A DNA stretch of 64,000 nucleotides from Pirellulales bacterium. Its GTDB lineage: Bacteria; Planctomycetota; Planctomycetia; Pirellulales; DATAWG01. The stretch spans positions 151,910 to 215,909 of the forward strand of contig CAVTYW010000015.1 in assembly GCA_963738955.1 (NCBI GenBank), in the 5' to 3' direction. Below, piece by piece: positions 2,566 through 9,561 of this stretch. Made by a program: the position numbers and the translations under genes. A model generated the notes under the pieces. The model was not told the DNA's origin, made no database searches, and worked only from the letters and a program-made list of their open reading frames with translations. How positions within the stretch are numbered: the stretch's first letter is position 1; each line of letters starts with the position of its first letter.

Positions 2566-4647
2566 ATGTCTGTCTCATCCGAAGTCCAAATCGAACAGTT
2601 GTCGATCAACACCATCCGCACGCTGTCGATGGACGCCGTGCAGGCGGCCAAGAGCGGCCATCCGGGCACGCCGATGGCGCTGGCCCCGGTGGCCTATCAC
2701 ACTGTGGCAGCAATGTGCTGCGGTTACGATCCCGACGCTCCGCATTGGCCGGCGCGCGATCGATTCGTGCTGTCGTGCGGCCATGCCTCGATGCTGCTCT
2801 ATTCCATGCTGCACCTGGCCGGCGTGAAGCAGCTTGACGCCGACGGCAAGCCGACCGGCGAACTGGCCGTGCTCGCTCGATCAGATCAAGCAGTTTCGCC
2901 AACTGCACAGCCGCTGCCCCGGCCATCCGGAAGCGAACGACACGACGGGCGTCGAAACCACGACCGGCCCGCTGGGCCAAGGCTGCGGCAACAGCGTCGG
3001 CATGGCGATCGCCCAGCGCTGGCTGGCCGCTCATTTCAATCGGCCGGGCTTCGAGCTGTTCGACTACAATGTCTACGCTCTGTGCAGCGACGGCGACATG
3101 ATGGAAGGCATCTCGAACGAAGCCGCGTCGATCGCCGGGCATCTGAAGCTCTCGAACCTCTGCTGGATTTACGACGACAATCACATCACGATCGAAGGCA
3201 ACACGAAGCTGGCCTTCGACGAAGACGTCGGCCGCCGCTTCGAGGGGCTCGGCTGGCATGTGATGCACGTCGCCGACGCCAACGATCTCGACGCGCTCGC
3301 CGCCGCCTTCAAATCGTTCGAGGAAACCGACGACCGGCCGACGATGATCATCGTCCGCAGTCATATCGGCTACGGTTCGCCGAACAAGCAAGACACGAAC
3401 AAGGCGCACGGCGAAGCCGCTCGGCGAAGAAGAAGTCAAGCTGACCAAGAAGGTCTACGGCTGGCCGGAAGATGCCAAGTTTCTCGTGCCCGAGGAAGTG
3501 CGCGAGCATTTCCAAGCCGGCATCGCTGTTCGCGGGCGGAAGTTGCACGACGAGTGGCAAGCGGATTGGACGAAATATCGCCGCGAAATTCCCGAGTTGG
3601 CCGAAAGAATGGGAATTGATGGACGCTCGACAATTGCCGGCTGGTTGGGACGCCGATCTAACGCCGTTCCCGGCCGACGCCAAGGGCATGGCCAGCCGCA
3701 TTTCGTCCGGCAAGGTGCTCAACGTCGTGGCGAAGCACGTTCCCTGGCTGATCGGCGGCGCCGCCGACCTGGCCCCTTCGACGATGACTCTATTGACCGG
3801 CGACGGTTGCACCGATTTCGAGCCGGGCAACTACGCCGGCCGCAACTTCCACTTCGGCATTCGCGAGCATGGCATGGCCTCCGCGGCTCAACGGCATGGC
3901 GCTGTCGAACGTGCGGCCGTTCGTGGCGACGTTCTTCGTGTTCATCGATTATCTGCAAGCCGTCGTTGCGGTTGGCCGCGCTCGGCAAGCTGCCGGTGAT
4001 TTACATCTTCACGCACGATTCGATCGGCCTGGGCGAAGACGGGCCGACGCATCAGCCGATCGAGCATCTGGCGGCCATGCGGGCGATTCCGAATATCTTG
4101 GTGTTCCGGCCCGGCGATGCCAACGAAGTGGTCGAGACGTATCGCGTCGGTGATGCCGCTTACCGATCGGCCCGCGGCGCTAGTGCTCACTCGGCAGAAT
4201 CTGCCGACGCTCGATCGCACGAAGTACGCCGCCGCCAGCGGCGTGGCGAAGGGGGCGTATGTGCTGGCCGATGCGGCGAAGGGAAAGCCGGACGTGATCC
4301 TCATGGCCACCGGCAGCGAAGTCGGCTTGTGTATTGAGGCATACGAACAACTCACCAAAGAGGGAATCGCGGCGCGGGTGGTGAGCATGCCGTGTTGGGA
4401 GCTGTTCGAGGCGCAGGATGATGCATATCGCAACAGCGTGTTGCCGCCGGATGTGACAGTGCGCGTCGGTGTCGAAGCGGCCGCGAGCTTTGGCTGGGAC
4501 CGCTATTTGGGCCCCGCGGGCCGGTTCGTCGGCATGAAAACCTTCGGTGCATCGGCGCCAGGGCCAGCGGTGATGAAATACTTTGGTTTCACCACCGAGA
4601 ATGTCGTGGCAACGGCGAAAGCAGCATTGGCCGCGAAGAAGTCGTAA
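2566..4647 (+). pseudogene. tkt: Transketolase, reading frame broken at least 6 times as assembled
   Basis: Track fragments starting at 2566, 2834, 3486, 3472, 3869 and 4117 together spell a full transketolase. Recognisable stretches include [118 protein letters not shown] and GMKTFGASAP. Frame order is 1>2>0>1>2>0>1, with breaks near 2872, 3417, 3600, 3885, 3958 and 4150. Each break is equivalent to a +1 insertion. Confidence 0.85.
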
Positions 4648-4669
4648 CCTCGTAGCTGGATTCGCCAGA

Positions 4670-5042
4670 ACTGGGTATTTACTTGACTCCACCATCCACT
4701 AGGGGTTGTGGTTTGAGCTGGCGGTTGAACGGAACTGGGGCGACTTGCACCGCTTGTTGTGCCAATCGGTAGAAGAGCTTGCCGCGTGTGGCCGAATTGC
4801 GGCGATTGAAACGGAATGTGAACTCATCGAGGTAATAGTCCAGATGTTGTGCGCCTACAGCCCCTTGATGCGTGCCCAGCAGCCATCGCTTCAACAAGGA
4901 TGCGACCCGATGCACTCTAGGCATGGCAACGATCGCCGCATCCGGAGGTTGTCCCTTCAGGGTCGTCACGCGATGACCATAACCGTAGGCATCCAAGCCA
5001 ACACTACATATTGGGGTCGGTGGAGTCAAGTAAATACCCAGT
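4670..5042 (-). mobile_element. IS1595-family-derived miniature element (MITE-like), copy 2
   Basis: Region 4649-5054 is identical to 505-910 (offset 4144). It has the same 24-bp IRs and the same TCGCCAGA flanks at 4662-4669 and 5043-5050. Orientation is direct relative to copy 1. Confidence 0.75.
4679..5029 (-). pseudogene. IS1595-family transposase, C-terminal fragment only (copy 2)
   Basis: Track ORF 4679..5029 (116 aa) is identical to the copy-1 fragment and includes HLDYYLDEFTFRFNRR. Confidence 0.6.
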
Positions 5043-5073
5043 TCGCCAGAATTCGGATGTCGGCGACCTCAGT

Positions 5074-5331
5074 TTAGAGCCCGTCGCCGAGCCAACCGCT
5101 GAGATCGTCCATTTCATTGGCTCGTTGCTCGGCGATTTTCCGCTGTGCCTCGGCCAGGGCGATTTCGTAGATGTTCATCGGGCGCGGCTGCATTCCACCA
5201 GGCGCGGGCGTTCCGGGGGCGAGGCCCGTCGGGATCGCAATGAAGGCCGATGGGTTCGTCTGGGGCGGTTCGGCTTGCTCCTGCGACTCGGCCGGGGGAG
5301 CGAAGTATTTGCTGATCCGATTCTTGAGCAT
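5074..5331 (-). CDS. Small hypothetical protein (85 aa)
   Basis: Track ORF only. It has a Pro-rich middle and a helical-looking C-terminus (NIYEIALAEAQRKIAEQRANEMDD). It is divergent from the Cys-rich gene. No family recognised. Confidence 0.3.
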   Translation of the reverse strand: MLKNRISKYFAPPAESQEQAEPPQTNPSAFIAIPTGLAPGTPAPGGMQPRPMNIYEIALAEAQRKIAEQRANEMDDLSGWLGDGL

Positions 5332-5531
5332 GGGTTCACCGTGTGTAATAGCCCGCGCCTACGTCATCAATCCGATGACTTTAGTAACATCGAGACGCCA
5401 GCGAAGAAACTTGGAGCGAATGCGGCCGCAAGAGGGGGCGAATTGACACGCTTTTCGGCGGCGCGCCCACAAGCGGCAAACTTTACGCAGATTTACACGC
5501 TGCGCCGCTCGTAGCGCAATCCAAGCTCCTA

Positions 5532-5561
5532 TTGCATGTTTTTTCGCCGTAGGCATATATT
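5532..5561 (+). promoter_or_regulatory. Candidate sigma70-like promoter (TTGCAT-18 nt-TATATT) for the Cys-rich gene
   Basis: TTGCAT at 5532-5537 and TATATT at 5556-5561, read directly. This would give a ~210-nt leader. Promoter consensus in this lineage is not known to me, so confidence is low. Confidence 0.25.
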
Positions 5562-5776
5562 GAACCCAGCTTTGCGGCCGTTCCCCCGCGAACGGCCGCC
5601 GTGGAATGGGTTAGGAATTGGAGTCTGCCGCGCGGTTGGCCGGCGAATTCGGCGGCCGCGCAAGAACCAAGGAACGGGTCTTTCTGCCGTCGCGCGGTCT
5701 TTTCCTTGTCCGAGCTGTTCGGGCGATGCCGCACGCGCCTCTGGATCGATCCGTCGATTAAAAGGAGTGATGTACG

Positions 5777-6256
5777 ATGGCTAGCACTATTGTTGCGGAA
5801 CGTTCGACAATCGGCGGCCCTTGGGCCGGACCAGCCGCGCCTTGGCAATCGGCCTACGGACCGATTGCCGCGCCGACGACGGGCAATTTCTCCGTGATGC
5901 CGCGCTGCAAGCTCGAGTTCGAGAAGTGCAACGGCGGTTTCAAGATCAATTGCTCGTGTGAAGACGAAGTCGCCTGCGGCCAGTTGCAAAATCTTTGCAA
6001 CATGCTCTGCGACGGCACCTGCTCGTGCTCCGCTTGCTGCAACGGCATCCAGATTTGCCAATGCAATCTCGCTTTGGGCTTCTGCCATTGCGAAAATACC
6101 AAAGACGGCGTGTGCATCACCTGCACCAGCGCCGACAAGAAGTGCGCCGAGATGATCCAAGCCTGCTGCGATTGCATCGCCGCTTGCTCCTGCCAGCCGG
6201 GTTGCTGCTGCTACATTTCGTTCAAAGGCACCCCGGTGTGCTGCGGAACCTGCTAA
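5777..6256 (+). CDS. Cysteine-rich protein (29 Cys in the last 116 residues), unknown family; metal-binding or disulfide-rich candidate
   Basis: The ATG at 5777 follows AAAGGAG (5760s) at appropriate spacing. Residues 1-43 are Cys-free and rich in Pro/Gly/Ala. Residues 44-159 contain CxC, CC, CCC and CxxC clusters, for example CSCSACC, CQC, CHC, CCDCIAACSC and GCCC...VCCGTC. A strong intrinsic terminator follows. Confidence 0.7.
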   Translation: MASTIVAERSTIGGPWAGPAAPWQSAYGPIAAPTTGNFSVMPRCKLEFEKCNGGFKINCSCEDEVACGQLQNLCNMLCDGTCSCSACCNGIQICQCNLALGFCHCENTKDGVCITCTSADKKCAEMIQACCDCIAACSCQPGCCCYISFKGTPVCCGTC

Positions 6257-6291
6257 TCGAGTCGTCCAAGTTCCCGCCATTTCGACCCTCG

Positions 6292-6329
6292 ACAGCCCCG
6301 GAGCAAGCCGCTCGGGGCTGTCTTTTTTT
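6292..6329 (+). terminator. Rho-independent terminator of the Cys-rich gene
   Basis: ACAGCCCCG (6292-6300), a 12-nt loop, CGGGGCTGT (6313-6321), then CTTTTTTT. Confidence 0.85.
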
Positions 6330-6351
6330 ATGGTCGGACTGAAGACACTAA

Positions 6352-6413
6352 CCGGAAGCGTTAGCGAGGGCGAGCGTTGACTCGCCGCCGCTCGCCCTCG
6401 CTAACGCTTCGGG
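6352..6413. repeat. Palindromic repeat, GAAGCGTTAGCGAGG family, copy A
   Basis: 25-nt arms with 1 mismatch (6352-6376 and 6389-6413) around a 12-nt loop. It shares the core CCSGAAGCGTTAGCGAGGGCGA with 11344-11407. Confidence 0.8.
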
Positions 6414-6490
6414 TGAGTATTCTAAATGGAAAAGCCCGTCATTCCCGCTACGAGCCGCATATCCCGCACTCCGGCGATCTGCGCTTCCAC

Positions 6491-6552: not shown

Positions 6553-6644
6553 GGCGAAAACTTGACCCTGCCTTCCAAGCGTACCTATACTGAAACATAC
6601 AGTGGCTCATCGTTTTGTGCCGTTCTGGCTTGGGAGAGGCTCCG

Positions 6645-7732
6645 ATGGCGTTTCGTCTTAGTTTGCGGGCGAGTGGTTTTGCAATTGCTTTCGTGGGCGC
6701 GGCTTGGATACTGTTGGCGACCGCTGCGGCACAGCAGCCCGCGGCGCGCAGATCCGCTGCGCCGCCGGCCGGGTTTCGCAAATTGGCGCCGGGCGTGGAA
6801 ACGACCGTTCCGCGGCCGTTGGACCCGCACGACACGGTGACGTATCACGACATCGTCGAGTTGACGGCCCCCGGCGTTGTGCCCGATTTGAATTGGACGC
6901 CGACCTTCAGCGCGCCGACGAAGACGTTGCTGTCGCTGGCGAAAGACCGTCCGTTTTATCGCACGGCCTGGTATCTGCAATTCACGTTCAAGCCGCTACG
7001 GCTGATCGAAGTCGATTTGCCGGGCCCGACCGGCCGGCTCGAGCGAAAAGTCGTTTGGTATATGGTTTACCGGGTGAAAAACCTCGGCGGCCATCTCAAG
7101 CCGGTCGCCAAGGAACCGCAGGCCGCCGATGAATTGGCCGGCGCCCGGAAGTTCAATCGGTCGATGATCTGGGTCCGCCGGGCATTGTTTTCATTCCGAA
7201 GTTTTCGCTCGAAGCGACCATCGACGGCCAAAAGCAGGTCTATGCCGATCGTCTGATTCCGCTGGCCATCGACGCCATCCGCCATCGCGAAGACCCGAAC
7301 CGTAAGCTGCTCGATACGGTGCAGATCAGCGGCCATCCAATCCCGCTCAGCACGGCGACCGACGATCGTAGCGTGTGGGGCGTGGCGACGTGGGTCGGCA
7401 TCGATCCGCGGATTGATTTCTTTTCGATCTACATCAACGGTCTGACCAACGCCTATCGTTGGACCGATCCGCCTGGAGCGTTCAAGGCGGGCGATCCGCC
7501 GGGCACCGGCCGCCAATACAAGCACAAGACGCTGCAATTGAACTTCTGGCGGCCGGGCGATGAATTCGCGCTGCTCGAAGACGAAATCCACATCGGAGCC
7601 CCGGCCGACAAAGTTGTTAAACCGGTTGACCCCGACGCTCTGCTAGCGCCCGGCGAAAAACCCGCACAAGAGGGCTCGCCCGGCGGCAGGAACTGGGATA
7701 AGATCATTGACTACCGGTGGATTTTCCGCTAA
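6645..7732 (+). CDS. Secreted hypothetical protein, one frame break near 7160
   Basis: The ATG at 6645 gives MAFRLSLRASGFAIAFVGAAWILLATAAAQQ (signal peptide). Track ORFs 6615..7256 and 7319..7732 join if one base is corrected near 7155-7165. The sense frame then continues as ...DDLGPPGIVFIPKFSLEATIDGQKQVYADRLIPLAIDAIRH... Confidence 0.6.
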
Positions 7733-7792: not shown

Positions 7793-7840
7793 ATATTTGA
7801 CTGTCGCCGAGCCAATTTCGGCGCATGAGGGAGCATTTCG

Positions 7841-8104
7841 ATGGCACACAAGAAGGGCCAAGGCTCAAGCCGCAACGGCCGCGATTCCCAGCCGCAGAAG
7901 CGGGGCGTCAAGCGATTCGGCGGCGAGCAGGTCATTGCCGGCAATATCCTCGTCCGGCAAGTCGGCAATCGCTTCCATCCCGGCCGCAACGTCGGTCAGG
8001 GGAAAGACTTTACGCTCTACGCGCTCGTCGACGGCGTCGTGCAATTCGACCGCGAAGGCCGCCGTGTGAACATCGTCAACGTGCCATGTTCGTCGATCGC
8101 GTAA
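7841..8104 (+). CDS. rpmA: 50S ribosomal protein L27
   Basis: [52 protein letters not shown]... is the canonical L27 N-terminus, and the length is 87 aa. Confidence 0.92.
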
Positions 8105-9561
8105 GAATTCAGGTCGCCGCCGGCAAAGGGGGCAACGGTTGCCTCAGCTTCCGCCGCGAGAAGTTCATTCCGCGCGGCGGGCCCGACGGCGGCGATGGCG
8201 GCGACGGCGGCAGCGTCATTCTCGTGGCCGAGGCCGGCGTCGATAGCCTCGCCGCTTTGGCCCATCGCAAGCATTGGCGCGCCGAGAACGGCATGCCCGG
8301 TTCGGGCAGCGATTGCCACGGCCGCAGCGCCGAGGATCTGATCCTGCCGGTTCCGCCTGGCACCGTGATCTACGATGCCGACGGCAAGTTTCTCTTGAAA
8401 GACCTGACGCAGATCGGCGAGCAGGTCGTCGTCGCGCGCGGCGGCCGCGGCGGCAAAGGCAACGCACACTTCAAAACGTCGATCAACCGCGCCCCGCGCG
8501 AGCACACGCCCGGCGGCGAAGGCGAAGCGCGCAATCTGCTCTTGGAACTGAAAGTGATCGCCGACGTCGGCCTGGTCGGCAAACCGAACGCCGGCAAGAG
8601 CACGCTGTTCAGCCGCCTATCGCGCGCCCGGCCGGAGATCGCCGATTATCCGTTCACCACCAAGTATCCGAACCTTGGCCTGGTCGATAGCGACGCCGAC
8701 CGCTCGTTCGTGATGGCCGATCTGCCCGGCTTGATCGAAGGAGCCCATGAAGGCATCGGCCTGGGAAACGAATTCCTGCGGCACATCGAACGGGCCGGAA
8801 TCCTCGTCCATCTGGTCGAACCGACGCCGGTCGACGGCTCCGATCCGCTCGCGAATTATCATGCGATCCGTTTCGAGCTCGAGCAATACGCCGCCGAACT
8901 AGGCACGCGCCCGGAAATCGTCGTGCTGACGAAGTGCGAACTGCCCGGTTCGGAGGAAGTTCATCGCCGGCTGAGCGAAGCACTTGGCCGCCCGATTCTT
9001 TCGGCAAGTGCCGTGACGGGCCAGAATCTCGACAAACTCCTCTGGCAGATTTCCGCGGCGCTCGAAGAGAAAAAGCAGCTCACGCGGAGCAGCGGAGACG
9101 CGGAGGAAAGGGTAGGAGAACCCCCGGCGTCCCACCCGGCCGCAGGTCTCGCACGACCGGTTGTGCATCGTGCTGGAATGCAATTCGAACCATACGATCC
9201 CGCTTGGCTCGTCAGCCTTGCAAACCAGCAAAGGCCGGATTTGCCGTGGCTCGCGGCGTCACTCGCCCGGTGCGTCCGATGCCACAAGAAATTGCAAGGG
9301 AAGAAGGGGACGTGCATTTATGAGCATTTCGTCGATCCGAAGAATGCCAACCAAGCAGGAGCTGATTGGCAATACAAGGAATCCATCTCGCTACAACATC
9401 CAGATTTCGGCCACATAATGCTCGACGTTCTCCGGGACAACCGTGTTGGAGGCGTCGAATTCTACGACCGCCTTCTTTCGGGGAAGCCTAAGCCGCCGGT
9501 CAACGCGCCACTTGACGACCGAACGGCGTTGGGCCAACCCTCAACGGTTACTGATCAATAG
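8086..9561 (+). CDS. obg: GTPase Obg/CgtA with an unusual ~160-aa C-terminal extension
   Basis: The ATG at 8086 gives [42 protein letters not shown] (Obg fold). G-domain motifs are [18 protein letters not shown] and TKCE. The core ends near 9080, but the frame stays open to 9561. Confidence 0.85.

Follow-up and report, generated by a model that had tools for sequence, protein, structure and literature searches.

Within the window, by which we refer to the whole 64,000-nucleotide stretch of DNA analysed, we identified a gene encoding a Cys-rich protein that, judged from sequence comparisons, belongs to an unannotated family of the Planctomycetota and together with a divergently transcribed partner gene forms a two-gene module specific to this phylum. 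In relatives of the window copy, the family is linked to sulfate-uptake clusters by genome context and by a cis-RNA, and we tentatively propose that the protein serves as a Cys/Met reserve or overflow sink linked to sulfur status, possibly metal-stabilised. The locus comprises the following features:

5074–5331, minus strand: partner gene for an 85-aa protein (MLKNRISKYF...NIYEIALAEAQRKIAE...GWLGDGL), found by iterated HMM and database homologues.
5332–5776, no strand assigned: divergent intergenic/leader region common to both genes, ~95% identical to the related locus L087 and conserved only in close relatives.
5532–5561, plus strand: weak, putative promoter (TTGCAT, 18 nt, TATATT), read from the sequence and identical in L087.
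5762–5767, plus strand: Shine-Dalgarno sequence AAGGAG, 9 nt upstream of the ATG.
5777–6256, plus strand: coding sequence of the Cys-rich protein (159 aa and stop), supported by its ORF, composition, purifying selection in frame and conserved family.
5777–5905, plus strand: N-terminal region (residues 1–43), Cys-free and predicted to be disordered (AlphaFold pLDDT <50 for residues 1–38).
5906–6076, plus strand: predicted core repeat 1 (residues 44–100), ββαββ (AlphaFold pLDDT 80–89).
6077–6253, plus strand: predicted core repeat 2 (residues 101–159), ββαββ (AlphaFold; duplication by hhalign).
6293–6329, plus strand: intrinsic terminator with an 8-bp GC stem, a 12-nt loop and a T-run; in L087 it is conserved as far as the T-run.

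The translated protein contains 29 Cys, all located within residues 44–159, where they account for 25% of the 116-residue core, as well as a single His. These features, the Cys-free first 43 residues and the individual Cys motifs had been described from the sequence in an earlier note and were all present in the translation. Likewise, the strong Shine-Dalgarno sequence and the terminator of that note were recovered: the terminator stem CAGCCCCG (6293–6300) pairs with CGGGGCTG (6313–6320), followed by TCTTTTTTT up to position 6329, and had been skipped by the terminator scanner solely because of its 12-nt loop. Of the 84 family members inspected, nearly all have an AAAGGAG-like site 6–9 nt ahead of the start. 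TGC is used for 28 of the 29 Cys codons of the window gene. The substitutions relative to one close relative were distributed as 2/4/28 over the codon positions 1/2/3, affecting 25 codons synonymously and 6 non-synonymously, and as 11/14/42 relative to another. The window ORF is under purifying selection and represents a real gene. A spurious ORF, a reading the earlier note had tied to missing homologues and missing transcription or translation signals, is unlikely in view of 230 genomic loci, the Shine-Dalgarno sequence and the purifying selection. Two antisense ORFs of 265 and 107 aa were rejected as shadow ORFs, as the substitutions land on their first codon position. In the related locus L211 an antisense ORF was called in place of the Cys-rich one; gene callers miss or mis-call this ORF, and the family is probably under-annotated. 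A collection of 15 billion proteins contains no exact copy of the window protein. Synteny between the window and L087 stops after the terminator T-run.

The earlier note had proposed profile searches, a structure prediction of residues 44–159 and a test of conservation and neighbourhood: the first matched neither a Pfam or NCBIfam family nor a characterised Cys-rich family, the second yielded a confident duplicated ββαββ model, and the third revealed 230 loci, with the partner gene and sulfate-uptake genes recurring near relatives. A first homologue search had returned 40 homologues, and the Planctomycetota family amounts to 230 genome loci in total. Screening the protein against Pfam and NCBIfam (hmmscan, E ≤ 10), PADLOC and PHROGs gave 0 families, and neither PDB sequences nor PDB folds matched (best fold TM-score 0.28, best E 0.04), in line with the proposed novelty relative to SmtA, MymT and Csp/DUF326. 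The partner and the two downstream ORFs also matched nothing in Pfam, NCBIfam, PADLOC and PHROGs, and our literature search found no described planctomycete Cys-rich protein of relevance, metallothionein or bacterial sulfur-reserve protein. According to their record titles, the named isolates and MAGs carrying the family derive from peat, soil, groundwater and freshwater, habitats that may be sulfur-limiting, which would suit a sulfur reserve.

The AlphaFold model confidently predicts the core to be a duplicated ββαββ domain. Repeat 1 comprises the strands 43–51, 54–61, 82–88 and 91–97 and a helix at 64–77, and repeat 2 the strands 102–107, 111–117, 143–149 and 152–158 and a helix at 121–138; hhalign aligned the two halves with a probability of 92.4% (E = 5e-7). 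In four Cys-poor relatives (P0091, P0092, P0108, P0148) retaining the same domain, the Cys columns are filled by L/V/I/A/S. The fold does not require the cysteines, which occupy normally hydrophobic interior positions. In the family alignment, conservation reaches 90% or more in about 25 Cys columns, and several columns hold either Cys or Met across the family, e.g. residues 100, 137, 139 and 144. Cys and Met together make up 23–44% of the core across 79 family members, whereas long ORFs nearby contain ~1.1% Cys and 1.5% Met. Other lineages of the family add Met throughout the protein, up to 21%. The more Met the folded core contains, the more is found in the disordered N-terminus (Spearman rho = 0.84), so that the enrichment does not depend on structure.

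Within the N-terminus, residues 6–9 form the short conserved motif h-h-E-R. The best 10-residue Kyte–Doolittle mean within the first 40 residues is 0.47 (family median 0.83), and neither the window protein nor 35 of 38 homologues showed a signal peptide by hydropathy. Together with the predicted disorder, this bears out the earlier view that the protein does not begin with a Sec signal. Residues 8–9 are E-R, with no RR motif, and no lipobox was found, as the conserved P-R-C does not qualify.

The gene had been described as stand-alone, which holds for the transcription unit only, since a conserved partner gene lies at 5074–5331 in divergent orientation. Iterated HMM searches placed the partner, typically ~80 aa long, beside its Cys-rich counterpart at 68 of the 87 loci, and a database search returned 40 homologues, all annotated as 'hypothetical', among them the exact window partner (P0194). 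AlphaFold predicts a mostly disordered protein with one helix at residues 54–80. Neither an HTH domain nor conserved metal ligands were found, the single Cys common to the partner family is missing from the window copy, and the partner carries short terminal motifs, with M-x-x-N-R-I at its N-terminus. In Singulisphaera acidiphila DSM 18658 the partner is Sinac_7187, next to the Cys-rich gene, and in Limnoglobus roseus PX52 it is PX52LOC_01935. The partner probably binds the Cys-rich protein. A fusion of the partner to the longer Cys-poor relatives was considered and rejected, because the partner HMM gave no match there. For the ancestral context, the Cys-poor relatives offer a single, uninformative contig (L209), where P0091 adjoins a SpoIIE phosphatase and no sulfur genes were found.

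Besides the partner, the only recurrent neighbours in the 87 loci were sulfate-uptake genes and an OscA-like gene. The sbp-cysT-cysW-cysA genes and the OscA-like DUF2292 gene lie within 6 kb in ~15 of these loci, in at least five arrangements; in two (L041, L080) the two-gene module is embedded inside the sulfate-uptake cluster, and in Singulisphaera acidiphila (L071) and L003 the module has only the OscA-like gene next to it. This gene matches the NCBIfam family NF033785 (sulfur-starvation response protein) below the cut-off. Furthermore, ~40 of 85 family leaders contain a covarying 5′-leader RNA, termed R1, with an architecture of two similar hairpins with GA/A internal loops. Searches against Rfam 15 gave no gathering-score match for R1 in eight loci and nothing relevant at E ≤ 10 for one leader. 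A metagenome scan for R1, blind to the downstream genes, gave 19 loci with matches confirmed by the covariance model; in 13 of them R1 immediately follows cysA-oscA, and a porin, receptor or lipoprotein gene begins ~20 nt downstream of it. The R1-associated porins (469–492 aa) contain 0 Cys and 0–2 Met, and Sbp contains none of either. Such near-sulfur-free envelope proteins and Sbp bear the signature of synthesis under sulfur starvation, and the Cys-rich family is the opposite. Neither R1 nor a sulfate transporter within 64 kb was found for the window copy or for L087, L210 and L001, which are closely related to it; the sulfur link of the window gene is by homology only.

We also inspected the window leader. 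Apart from a 58-nt palindromic insert in L087, the intergenic regions of the two loci are ~95% identical. The promoter candidate of the earlier note is present and identical in L087, but its −35 hexamer matches only 3 of 6 consensus positions and a consensus promoter scan did not call it. The 'structured-looking leader' of the same note did not hold up, with a minimum free energy no better than that of shuffled sequence (z = −0.5). An Rfam search of the leader gave no credible family match, and a filters-off covariance-model search for R1 reached scores of at most 7 bits. An AT-rich palindromic operator (ATTAGTAAT-like), suspected to be common to sbp promoters and the intergenic region, was dropped because the site occurs in only 3 of 73 upstream regions. 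A second motif search among leaders devoid of R1 yielded Gemmataceae-specific elements, none of which is common to the window.

As relatives adjoin sulfate-uptake genes, the protein may be a store for sulfur and not a metal binder of the classical type. In the scheme we infer, which extends to storage and mobilisation, partner role, metal stabilisation and direction of regulation, the Cys-rich protein would be abundant and cytoplasmic, with the N-terminal motif and a ~40-residue disordered linker preceding the duplicated domain. Its message would be made along with the sulfate-uptake machinery. An ORF with 25% Cys would be translated efficiently only when cysteine is plentiful, so that the protein would soak up cysteine when sulfur arrives, avoiding free-cysteine toxicity, and would keep it in a compact form, possibly stabilised as zinc- or copper-thiolate. 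Upon falling sulfur supply, proteolysis would return the sulfur, with the partner potentially acting as an adaptor or chaperone for mobilisation. In favour of a reserve, the Cys/Met composition appears to be selected as such, and the family-wide strong Shine-Dalgarno sequence and the terminator are possible signs of high expression. Against it, R1 and a sulfate transporter are missing from the window locus and its close relatives, the conservation of the Cys columns exceeds the needs of a store based on composition alone and fits specific metal-thiolate or disulfide chemistry, and the Cys-poor relative P0091 lies outside a sulfur context. Moreover, if R1 were a starvation on-switch, co-inducing a protein with 25% Cys would be paradoxical unless the polarity is reversed or the overflow model applies. 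The prior for a protein-based sulfur reserve is also low, since none was found in the literature. The full scheme, in which a planctomycete protein sulfur reserve is mobilised by a small disordered adaptor and joined by a sulfur-responsive R1 to the regulon of the near-sulfur-free uptake proteins, is open to considerable doubt.

The main rival is a high-capacity store or detoxifier of soft metals (Cu(I), Zn, Cd) with a Csp-like thiolate-lined interior, extended by thioethers in the Met-rich forms, with the partner as metallochaperone or regulator. It would account for the 29 Cys and their highly conserved columns, for the interchange of Cys and Met, both soft-metal ligands, at residues 100, 137, 139 and 144, and for the predicted placement of Cys in alternation on the β-strands (CxCxC) and on one helix face (i, i+7, i+11), which suggests a Cys-lined interior. 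Cytoplasmic proteins with many free thiols are usually metal-bound, and the divergent small partner recalls the smtB–smtA arrangement. However, P-type ATPases, RND/CDF efflux systems and ArsR/MerR/CsoR regulators do not recur among the neighbours in the 87 loci, the protein resembles no metallothionein or Csp in sequence or fold and contains only one His, and the partner has neither an HTH nor conserved metal ligands, with even its common Cys missing from the window copy. A defined metal cluster needs no correlation between N-terminal and core Met, and a metal store predicts neither the sulfate-uptake context nor the shared RNA. The high-capacity metal store put forward in the earlier note therefore stands as a serious though somewhat unlikely possibility, since no metal genes recur and the sole recurrent functional context is sulfur acquisition.

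Less probable still is a thiol, sulfane-sulfur or redox buffer acting as a sink for oxidants and electrophiles or as a persulfide/polysulfide carrier in sulfur assimilation. The extreme Cys and Met content, the linkage to sulfur-assimilation clusters and the annotation of the oscA family as sulfur-starvation response protein (NF033785, below cut-off here) agree with such a role, but genes for thioredoxin, Msr, peroxiredoxin, rhodanese and sulfurtransferase do not recur in the 87 loci, and the Cys appear buried in the predicted compact fold rather than exposed. We consider improbable a regulatory device in which translation of the Cys-dense ORF reports cysteine and the protein and its disordered partner constitute a titration pair for the sulfur regulon. 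The tight two-gene linkage, the short terminal motifs of the partner, the module inside the clusters of L041 and L080 and the shared R1 leader would be expected of such a device, whereas a conserved duplicated fold of 116 residues and a strong Shine-Dalgarno sequence exceed the needs of a translational sensor, neither protein has a detected DNA- or RNA-binding domain, and the selection for Met content is left unexplained.

Planctomycete envelopes contain Cys-rich proteins and other R1-controlled genes encode envelope proteins, but a secreted, disulfide-knotted structural or cell-envelope protein, as the earlier note had considered, is very unlikely given the lack of an export signal in the window protein and 35 of 38 homologues, the conserved E-R at residues 8–9, the missing lipobox and the absence of YTV or other envelope domains from the Pfam results. 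The leader-plus-core RiPP precursor of the same note, suggested by a Cys-free segment preceding a Cys-dense one, has next to no likelihood, because the predicted 116-residue duplicated globular core also occurs in Cys-poor relatives and no maturase accompanies it: neighbour clustering of the 87 loci found no LanB/C/M, YcaO, cyclodehydratase or radical-SAM enzyme and no conserved protease or exporter, the kind of genes that would accompany, for example, a SCIFF/ranthipeptide or lanthipeptide precursor, which extends to these loci the note's remark that no maturase is nearby.

Known bacterial stores include polyphosphate for phosphorus, cyanophycin for nitrogen, PHA and glycogen for carbon, ferritin for iron, Csp for copper, and globules and encapsulins for elemental sulfur; in the literature we found no description of a bacterial protein reserve of sulfur amino acids. 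The proposed Cys/Met reserve would, if true, fill this gap as the sulfur counterpart of polyphosphate/cyanophycin 'overplus' storage, and is directly testable in cultivated planctomycetes. Should the protein bind metal instead, both its fold and its family would still be new among high-capacity, Cys-lined binders, and the obligate partner would still need explaining. R1 makes a strong new candidate for cis-regulation of sulfate acquisition, also outside Planctomycetota, and we know of no riboswitch established for a signal relevant to it.

Among known systems, Csp1/Csp3 (DUF326, PF03860) resemble the protein as small, regular folds in which many Cys replace interior residues, giving a high potential ligand capacity without similarity to classical metallothioneins. 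In contrast to the four-helix bundle of Csp with Cys on helical heptads, the protein is predicted to adopt an α/β (ββαββ)x2 fold, has no Pfam match at E ≤ 10, no PDB fold match and no copper-gene context, and comes with an obligate small partner and a sulfate-uptake link. With SmtA/BmtA (PF02069) and MymT it shares small size and Cys richness, and with smtA the divergent orientation towards a small partner gene, smtB in that system. SmtA/BmtA have about 55 aa with 9 Cys plus His in a zinc-finger-like fold. The protein differs from SmtA, BmtA and MymT in being three times larger, with 29 Cys, 1 His and no family match, and in a fold that is predicted to be stable and common to Cys-poor relatives; its partner, disordered and lacking an HTH, is unlike the ArsR/SmtB-type HTH repressor SmtB.

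Plant seed storage proteins such as 2S albumins and delta/beta-zeins, whose expression is coupled to sulfur supply, offer a functional analogy as sulfur reserves with selection for Cys/Met content as such. They are eukaryotic, secreted to storage vacuoles and of unrelated folds, whereas the protein described here is bacterial, would only by inference have a storage role, and reaches a higher sulfur density, with up to 44% of core residues. The Family 2A encapsulin of SrpI type with its cysteine desulfurase cargo, which has a disordered N-terminus with a short targeting motif, is linked to sulfur starvation and stores elemental sulfur inside its shell; it shares the idea of a bacterial, sulfur-starvation-linked store, and no encapsulin or desulfurase gene recurred near the Cys-rich family in the 87 loci. 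Finally, R1 resembles the sul1 RNA motif (Weinberg et al. 2017, PMC5737381), a putative cis-regulator located in the 5′ UTRs of genes for sulfur transport or metabolism; both are candidate regulatory leaders of sulfur-linked genes with no ligand assigned. Unlike sul1, R1 is located after cysA-oscA, before porins and before Cys-rich genes, and is composed of two hairpins with GA/A internal loops.

The Cys-rich gene lies on the forward strand, between a divergent partner ORF and a hairpin terminator:

5074-5331, minus strand: partner ORF, 85 aa, divergent from the Cys-rich gene
5532-5561, plus strand: candidate promoter TTGCAT-18-TATATT, matching 3/6 positions at the -35 hexamer
5762-5767, plus strand: Shine-Dalgarno sequence AAGGAG, 9 nt 5' of the start codon
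5777-6256, plus strand: Cys-rich coding sequence, ATG start, 159 codons
6293-6320, plus strand: terminator hairpin with an 8-bp GC-rich stem, then TCTTTTTTT to 6329

Translation of the coding sequence bore out the composition described in the earlier note, with 29 Cys residues all located within residues 44-159 (25% of this 116-residue segment), none in residues 1-43 and a single His; TGC is the codon for 28 of these 29 Cys. The strong Shine-Dalgarno sequence and textbook terminator it had reported are likewise in place, the latter being missed by the consensus scanner only because its loop comprises 12 nt. The proposed promoter stood in part, as both hexamers are present but the -35 match is poor and a consensus scan of the window did not call it. 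The description as a stand-alone gene did not hold, given the conserved partner ORF adjoining it.

Directly 3' of the terminator we observed a 30-nt inverted repeat (6347-6418; 93% complementary, 12-nt spacer), exactly where synteny with the close relative L087 stops. The L087 intergenic region carries a different, 58-nt palindromic insert, and both are possibly small hairpin elements of a REP- or MITE-like kind. Two further ORFs, 6615-7256 (+) and 7319-7732 (+), show coding-like GC3 without matches in Pfam, NCBIfam, PADLOC or PHROGs; downstream of them lie obg (7825-9561), a DUF4058 gene and a gene for type III pantothenate kinase.

Comparison with two close relatives of the same length, L087 and L210, revealed substitutions at codon positions 1/2/3 of 2/4/28 and 11/14/42, respectively, with synonymous to non-synonymous codon ratios of 25:6 and 33:20. 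This codon-position bias indicates a real gene, and a spurious ORF is effectively excluded. For the antisense ORFs 5483-6280 (-) and 5854-6177 (-) the changes would land on the first codon position, marking them as shadow ORFs of a GC3-rich gene. In the relative L211 (1245-1938), gene calling produced an antisense ORF of 107 aa and fragments in place of the Cys-rich gene. Within a 15-billion-protein collection the product of the neighbouring partner gene was found (P0194) and the exact Cys-rich protein was not. This gene misleads gene callers, and the family is probably under-annotated.

An initial homology search yielded 40 homologues of 145-182 aa, all termed 'hypothetical' and devoid of Pfam domains. 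Scanning one genome per species gave 230 family loci. The 80 loci retrieved all belong to Planctomycetota (Pirellulales, Gemmatales, Isosphaerales), except for one short contig binned as Roseiflexaceae. Carriers include Singulisphaera acidiphila DSM 18658, Limnoglobus roseus PX52, Anatilimnocola sp. NA78 and Planctomicrobium sp. SH664, and several genomes contain two copies. Among 1.84 billion representative proteins, an exhaustive search with the family profile returned only 203 matches, many of them fragments; the family is narrow. The profile searches proposed in the earlier note matched no family in Pfam or NCBIfam, nor did PADLOC, PHROGs or a PDB sequence-profile search.

Structure prediction of the core, also suggested there, was performed with AlphaFold on a 39-sequence alignment. 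Residues 1-38 were predicted to be disordered (pLDDT < 50), and residues 43-159 to adopt a confident fold (pLDDT 80-89) comprising a ββαββ topology twice. Profile-to-profile alignment of the two halves (92.4% probability, E = 5e-7) indicates that the core is an internal duplication. A Foldseek search against the PDB gave no match (best E 0.04, best TM-score 0.28). Conservation reaches ≥90% in about 25 Cys columns of the family alignment, and in the predicted fold the cysteines take alternate positions in the strands and repeatedly occupy the same face of a helix, suggesting that the interior is lined with them. The N-terminus, correctly judged not to be a Sec signal, carries a conserved short hydrophobic-hydrophobic-E-R motif at residues 6-9. 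In addition to its predicted disorder, it lacks signal-peptide character (best 10-residue hydropathy mean 0.47), effectively excluding an exported protein.

Exhaustive searching also recovered distant relatives (P0091, P0092, P0108, P0148) with the same domain bearing L/V/I/A/S at most Cys columns; of the conserved Cys they retain just the first and the last, in P-R-C and P-V-C motifs. The fold is thus older than its cysteines and independent of them. These relatives have C-terminal extensions without a Pfam match, P0108 contains the ββαββ domain twice, and at L209 3541-4365 a Cys-poor relative adjoins a SpoIIE-type phosphatase.

The family splits into Met-poor forms, including the window protein, and Met-rich forms. 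The combined Cys and Met content is 20-41% over the full protein length and 23-44% within the core, compared to means of 1.5% Met and 1.1% Cys in long neighbouring ORFs. Met reaches 35% in the disordered N-terminus and 21% in the core, and its fractions in the two segments are correlated (Spearman rho = 0.84, p = 5e-22; 79 distinct members). As this enrichment ignores the boundary between disordered and folded parts, it suggests that composition itself is under selection.

When ORFs from 87 loci were clustered all against all, a single notable set of neighbours recurred besides the partner, namely a sulfate ABC transporter with a small DUF2292 protein. DUF1559 and Gfo/Idh/MocA-like proteins recur as well, but these genomes contain many copies of both large families; some DUF1559 copies proved to be linked to the leader RNA R1 described below. 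No metal-homeostasis gene recurred among the neighbours of the 87 loci. NCBIfam assigned Sbp (TIGR00971), CysT and CysW as equivalogs and CysA at subfamily level, all above cut-off; the DUF2292 protein is related, below cut-off, to OscA, a protein of the sulfur-starvation response (NF033785). In ~15/87 loci this set is no further than 6 kb from the Cys-rich gene, and its layout varies: immediately downstream (L082), upstream in the same orientation, giving the order sbp-cysTWA-oscA-partner-Cys (L041), surrounding the partner/Cys-rich module (L080), convergent at 2-5 kb (L010, L018, L024, L030, L032 and others), or with the gene beside cysK-sbp (L014). In L071 (S. acidiphila) and L003 (Planctomicrobium) an OscA-like gene alone adjoins. 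We estimate the chance expectation for a 12-kb window in a 7-Mb genome at far below 1 locus in 87, for loci that are not phylogenetically independent. The 64-kb window itself contains no sulfate transporter or oscA-like gene.

Motif sampling of the family upstream regions revealed a conserved element at a fixed distance 5' of the start codon. This element, R1, spans ~75 nt and consists of two similar hairpins, GCC-GA-CCCG...CGGG-A-GGC and GCGU..GCU-GA-CUGG...CCAG-A-GG..ACGC, with inner stem variants such as CUGG/CCAG, CCGG/CCGG, CCAG/CUGG and CCGA/UCGG. In 20 seed sequences 91.8% of cells pair, versus ~45% with partners slid. For 48 covariance-model matches, whose alignment is fitted to the model, the value was 94.6%, with compensatory changes in 16/17 pairs. 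None of 500 shuffles reached these pairing and covariation values. R1 matched no Rfam family and is distinct from the sul1 motif (PMC5737381). It precedes ~40/85 Cys-rich genes and, in the same loci, also directly follows the sbp-cysTWA-oscA operon, ahead of DUF1559, lipoprotein or BON genes. Copies are located, for example, at:

L013, 5067-5141, plus strand
L030, 5825-5899, plus strand
L024, 2421-2493, plus strand, and 4769-4842, minus strand
L091, 2175-2243, plus strand
L101, 3543-3611, minus strand

A metagenome scan that used a degenerate form of the R1 pattern and took no account of the genes downstream gave 80 loci, and the model confirmed 20 matches in 19 of them. In 13 of these 19, in sulfate-uptake clusters of other bacteria, R1 directly follows cysA-DUF2292, ~20 nt before envelope genes encoding Porin_O_P, Porin_5, a TonB-receptor-like protein or a lipoprotein; two confirmed matches precede Cys-rich family members. 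The R1-linked porins (469-492 aa; e.g. L134, L140, L091, L132, L146) contain no Cys and 0-2 internal Met, one of 485 aa having neither, and BON proteins (L028, L030, L032, L034) and Sbp (L024 8062-9048) lack both residues. Near-absence of sulfur amino acids is a known signature of proteins made during sulfur starvation. A single cis-element hence lies ahead of proteins almost devoid of sulfur and also of the family with the highest sulfur density in these genomes. R1 is a candidate for a new cis-regulator or riboswitch related to sulfur.

R1 is missing from the window leader (best score 7 bits in a covariance search with filters off). This leader has no credible Rfam match, is conserved only among close relatives and folds no better than shuffled sequence (z = -0.5), at odds with the structured-looking leader reported earlier. 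The window gene is linked to sulfur by homology to those members having that link. Gemmataceae-type members (L048, L053, L062, L066, L072, L086) also lack R1; their leaders have different elements in common, TAAAATCGTTGCAA and a hairpin GCCCGA..GGACGGGC, at about -50 to -140 from the start.

In the loci inspected first, partner homologues could be recognised 5' of the Cys-rich gene, and an iterated HMM over six-frame ORFs placed the partner next to 68/87 Cys-rich genes: divergent and upstream in 57 loci, tandem downstream in 5, tail-to-tail in 5 (including two divergent pairs that overlap in ORF calls) and tandem upstream in 1. Constant adjacency at varying geometry argues for functional coupling. 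Its consensus comprises an N-terminal M-x-x-N-R-I, a Pro-rich linker, a-F-V-x-x-P and a helix Q-x-x-L-Y-R-x-A-Y-E-x-A, usually ending in W-N. All 40 database homologues, among them Sinac_7187 and PX52LOC_01935, are unnamed, and family-library searches gave no match. AlphaFold predicted disorder except for one helix (residues 54-80), a profile suggestive of a binding partner (adaptor, chaperone or inhibitor) rather than an enzyme or classical DNA-binding regulator.

The order transketolase-partner-Cys-rich is kept in the window's own clade (L087, L210, L211), and the genes beyond differ. The window transketolase gene (2566-4647, +), intact at 690 aa in these relatives, is split over frames 1, 2, 3 and 1 by at least 3 frameshifts, reflecting either a pseudogene or assembly indel errors; the Cys-rich ORF is unaffected. 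A ~400-bp element occurs at 505-913 and 4649-5057 (300 nt 100% identical), each copy bounded by inverted repeats of 43-56 nt and encoding a C-terminal fragment of an IS1595/ISXO2-type transposase. The copy inserted between the transketolase and partner genes is absent in L087.

Together, these data fit best with a reserve of sulfur amino acids, or an overflow sink for them, that is linked to sulfur status: composition seems selected as such, Cys and hydrophobic residues are interchangeable in the fold, the signals for expression are strong, the family has context and cis-regulation in common with sulfate uptake, and the partner appears suited to control stability or mobilisation. Co-regulation with starvation genes could be reconciled simply by an 'overplus' logic, in which the message would be present while sulfate uptake is de-repressed, the 25%-Cys ORF would be translated efficiently only once cysteine becomes available, and the protein would then take up and store the cysteine surge. 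A Csp-like soft-metal store remains a serious rival in view of the strongly conserved Cys positions and the chemistry of many cytoplasmic thiols. The two are not mutually exclusive, as a metal-thiolate core could stabilise a sulfur store. A redox or sulfane-sulfur buffer, or a regulatory titration pair formed with the partner, is less likely, and the RiPP (leader-plus-core) precursor considered in the earlier note is effectively excluded by the tests run. Literature searches retrieved no prior description of the family, and we found no described family, fold or system matching the protein, which we regard conservatively as a variant of 'Cys-lined storage protein', a kind already known. Were the reading as a sulfur reserve true, it would constitute a new kind of bacterial storage system.
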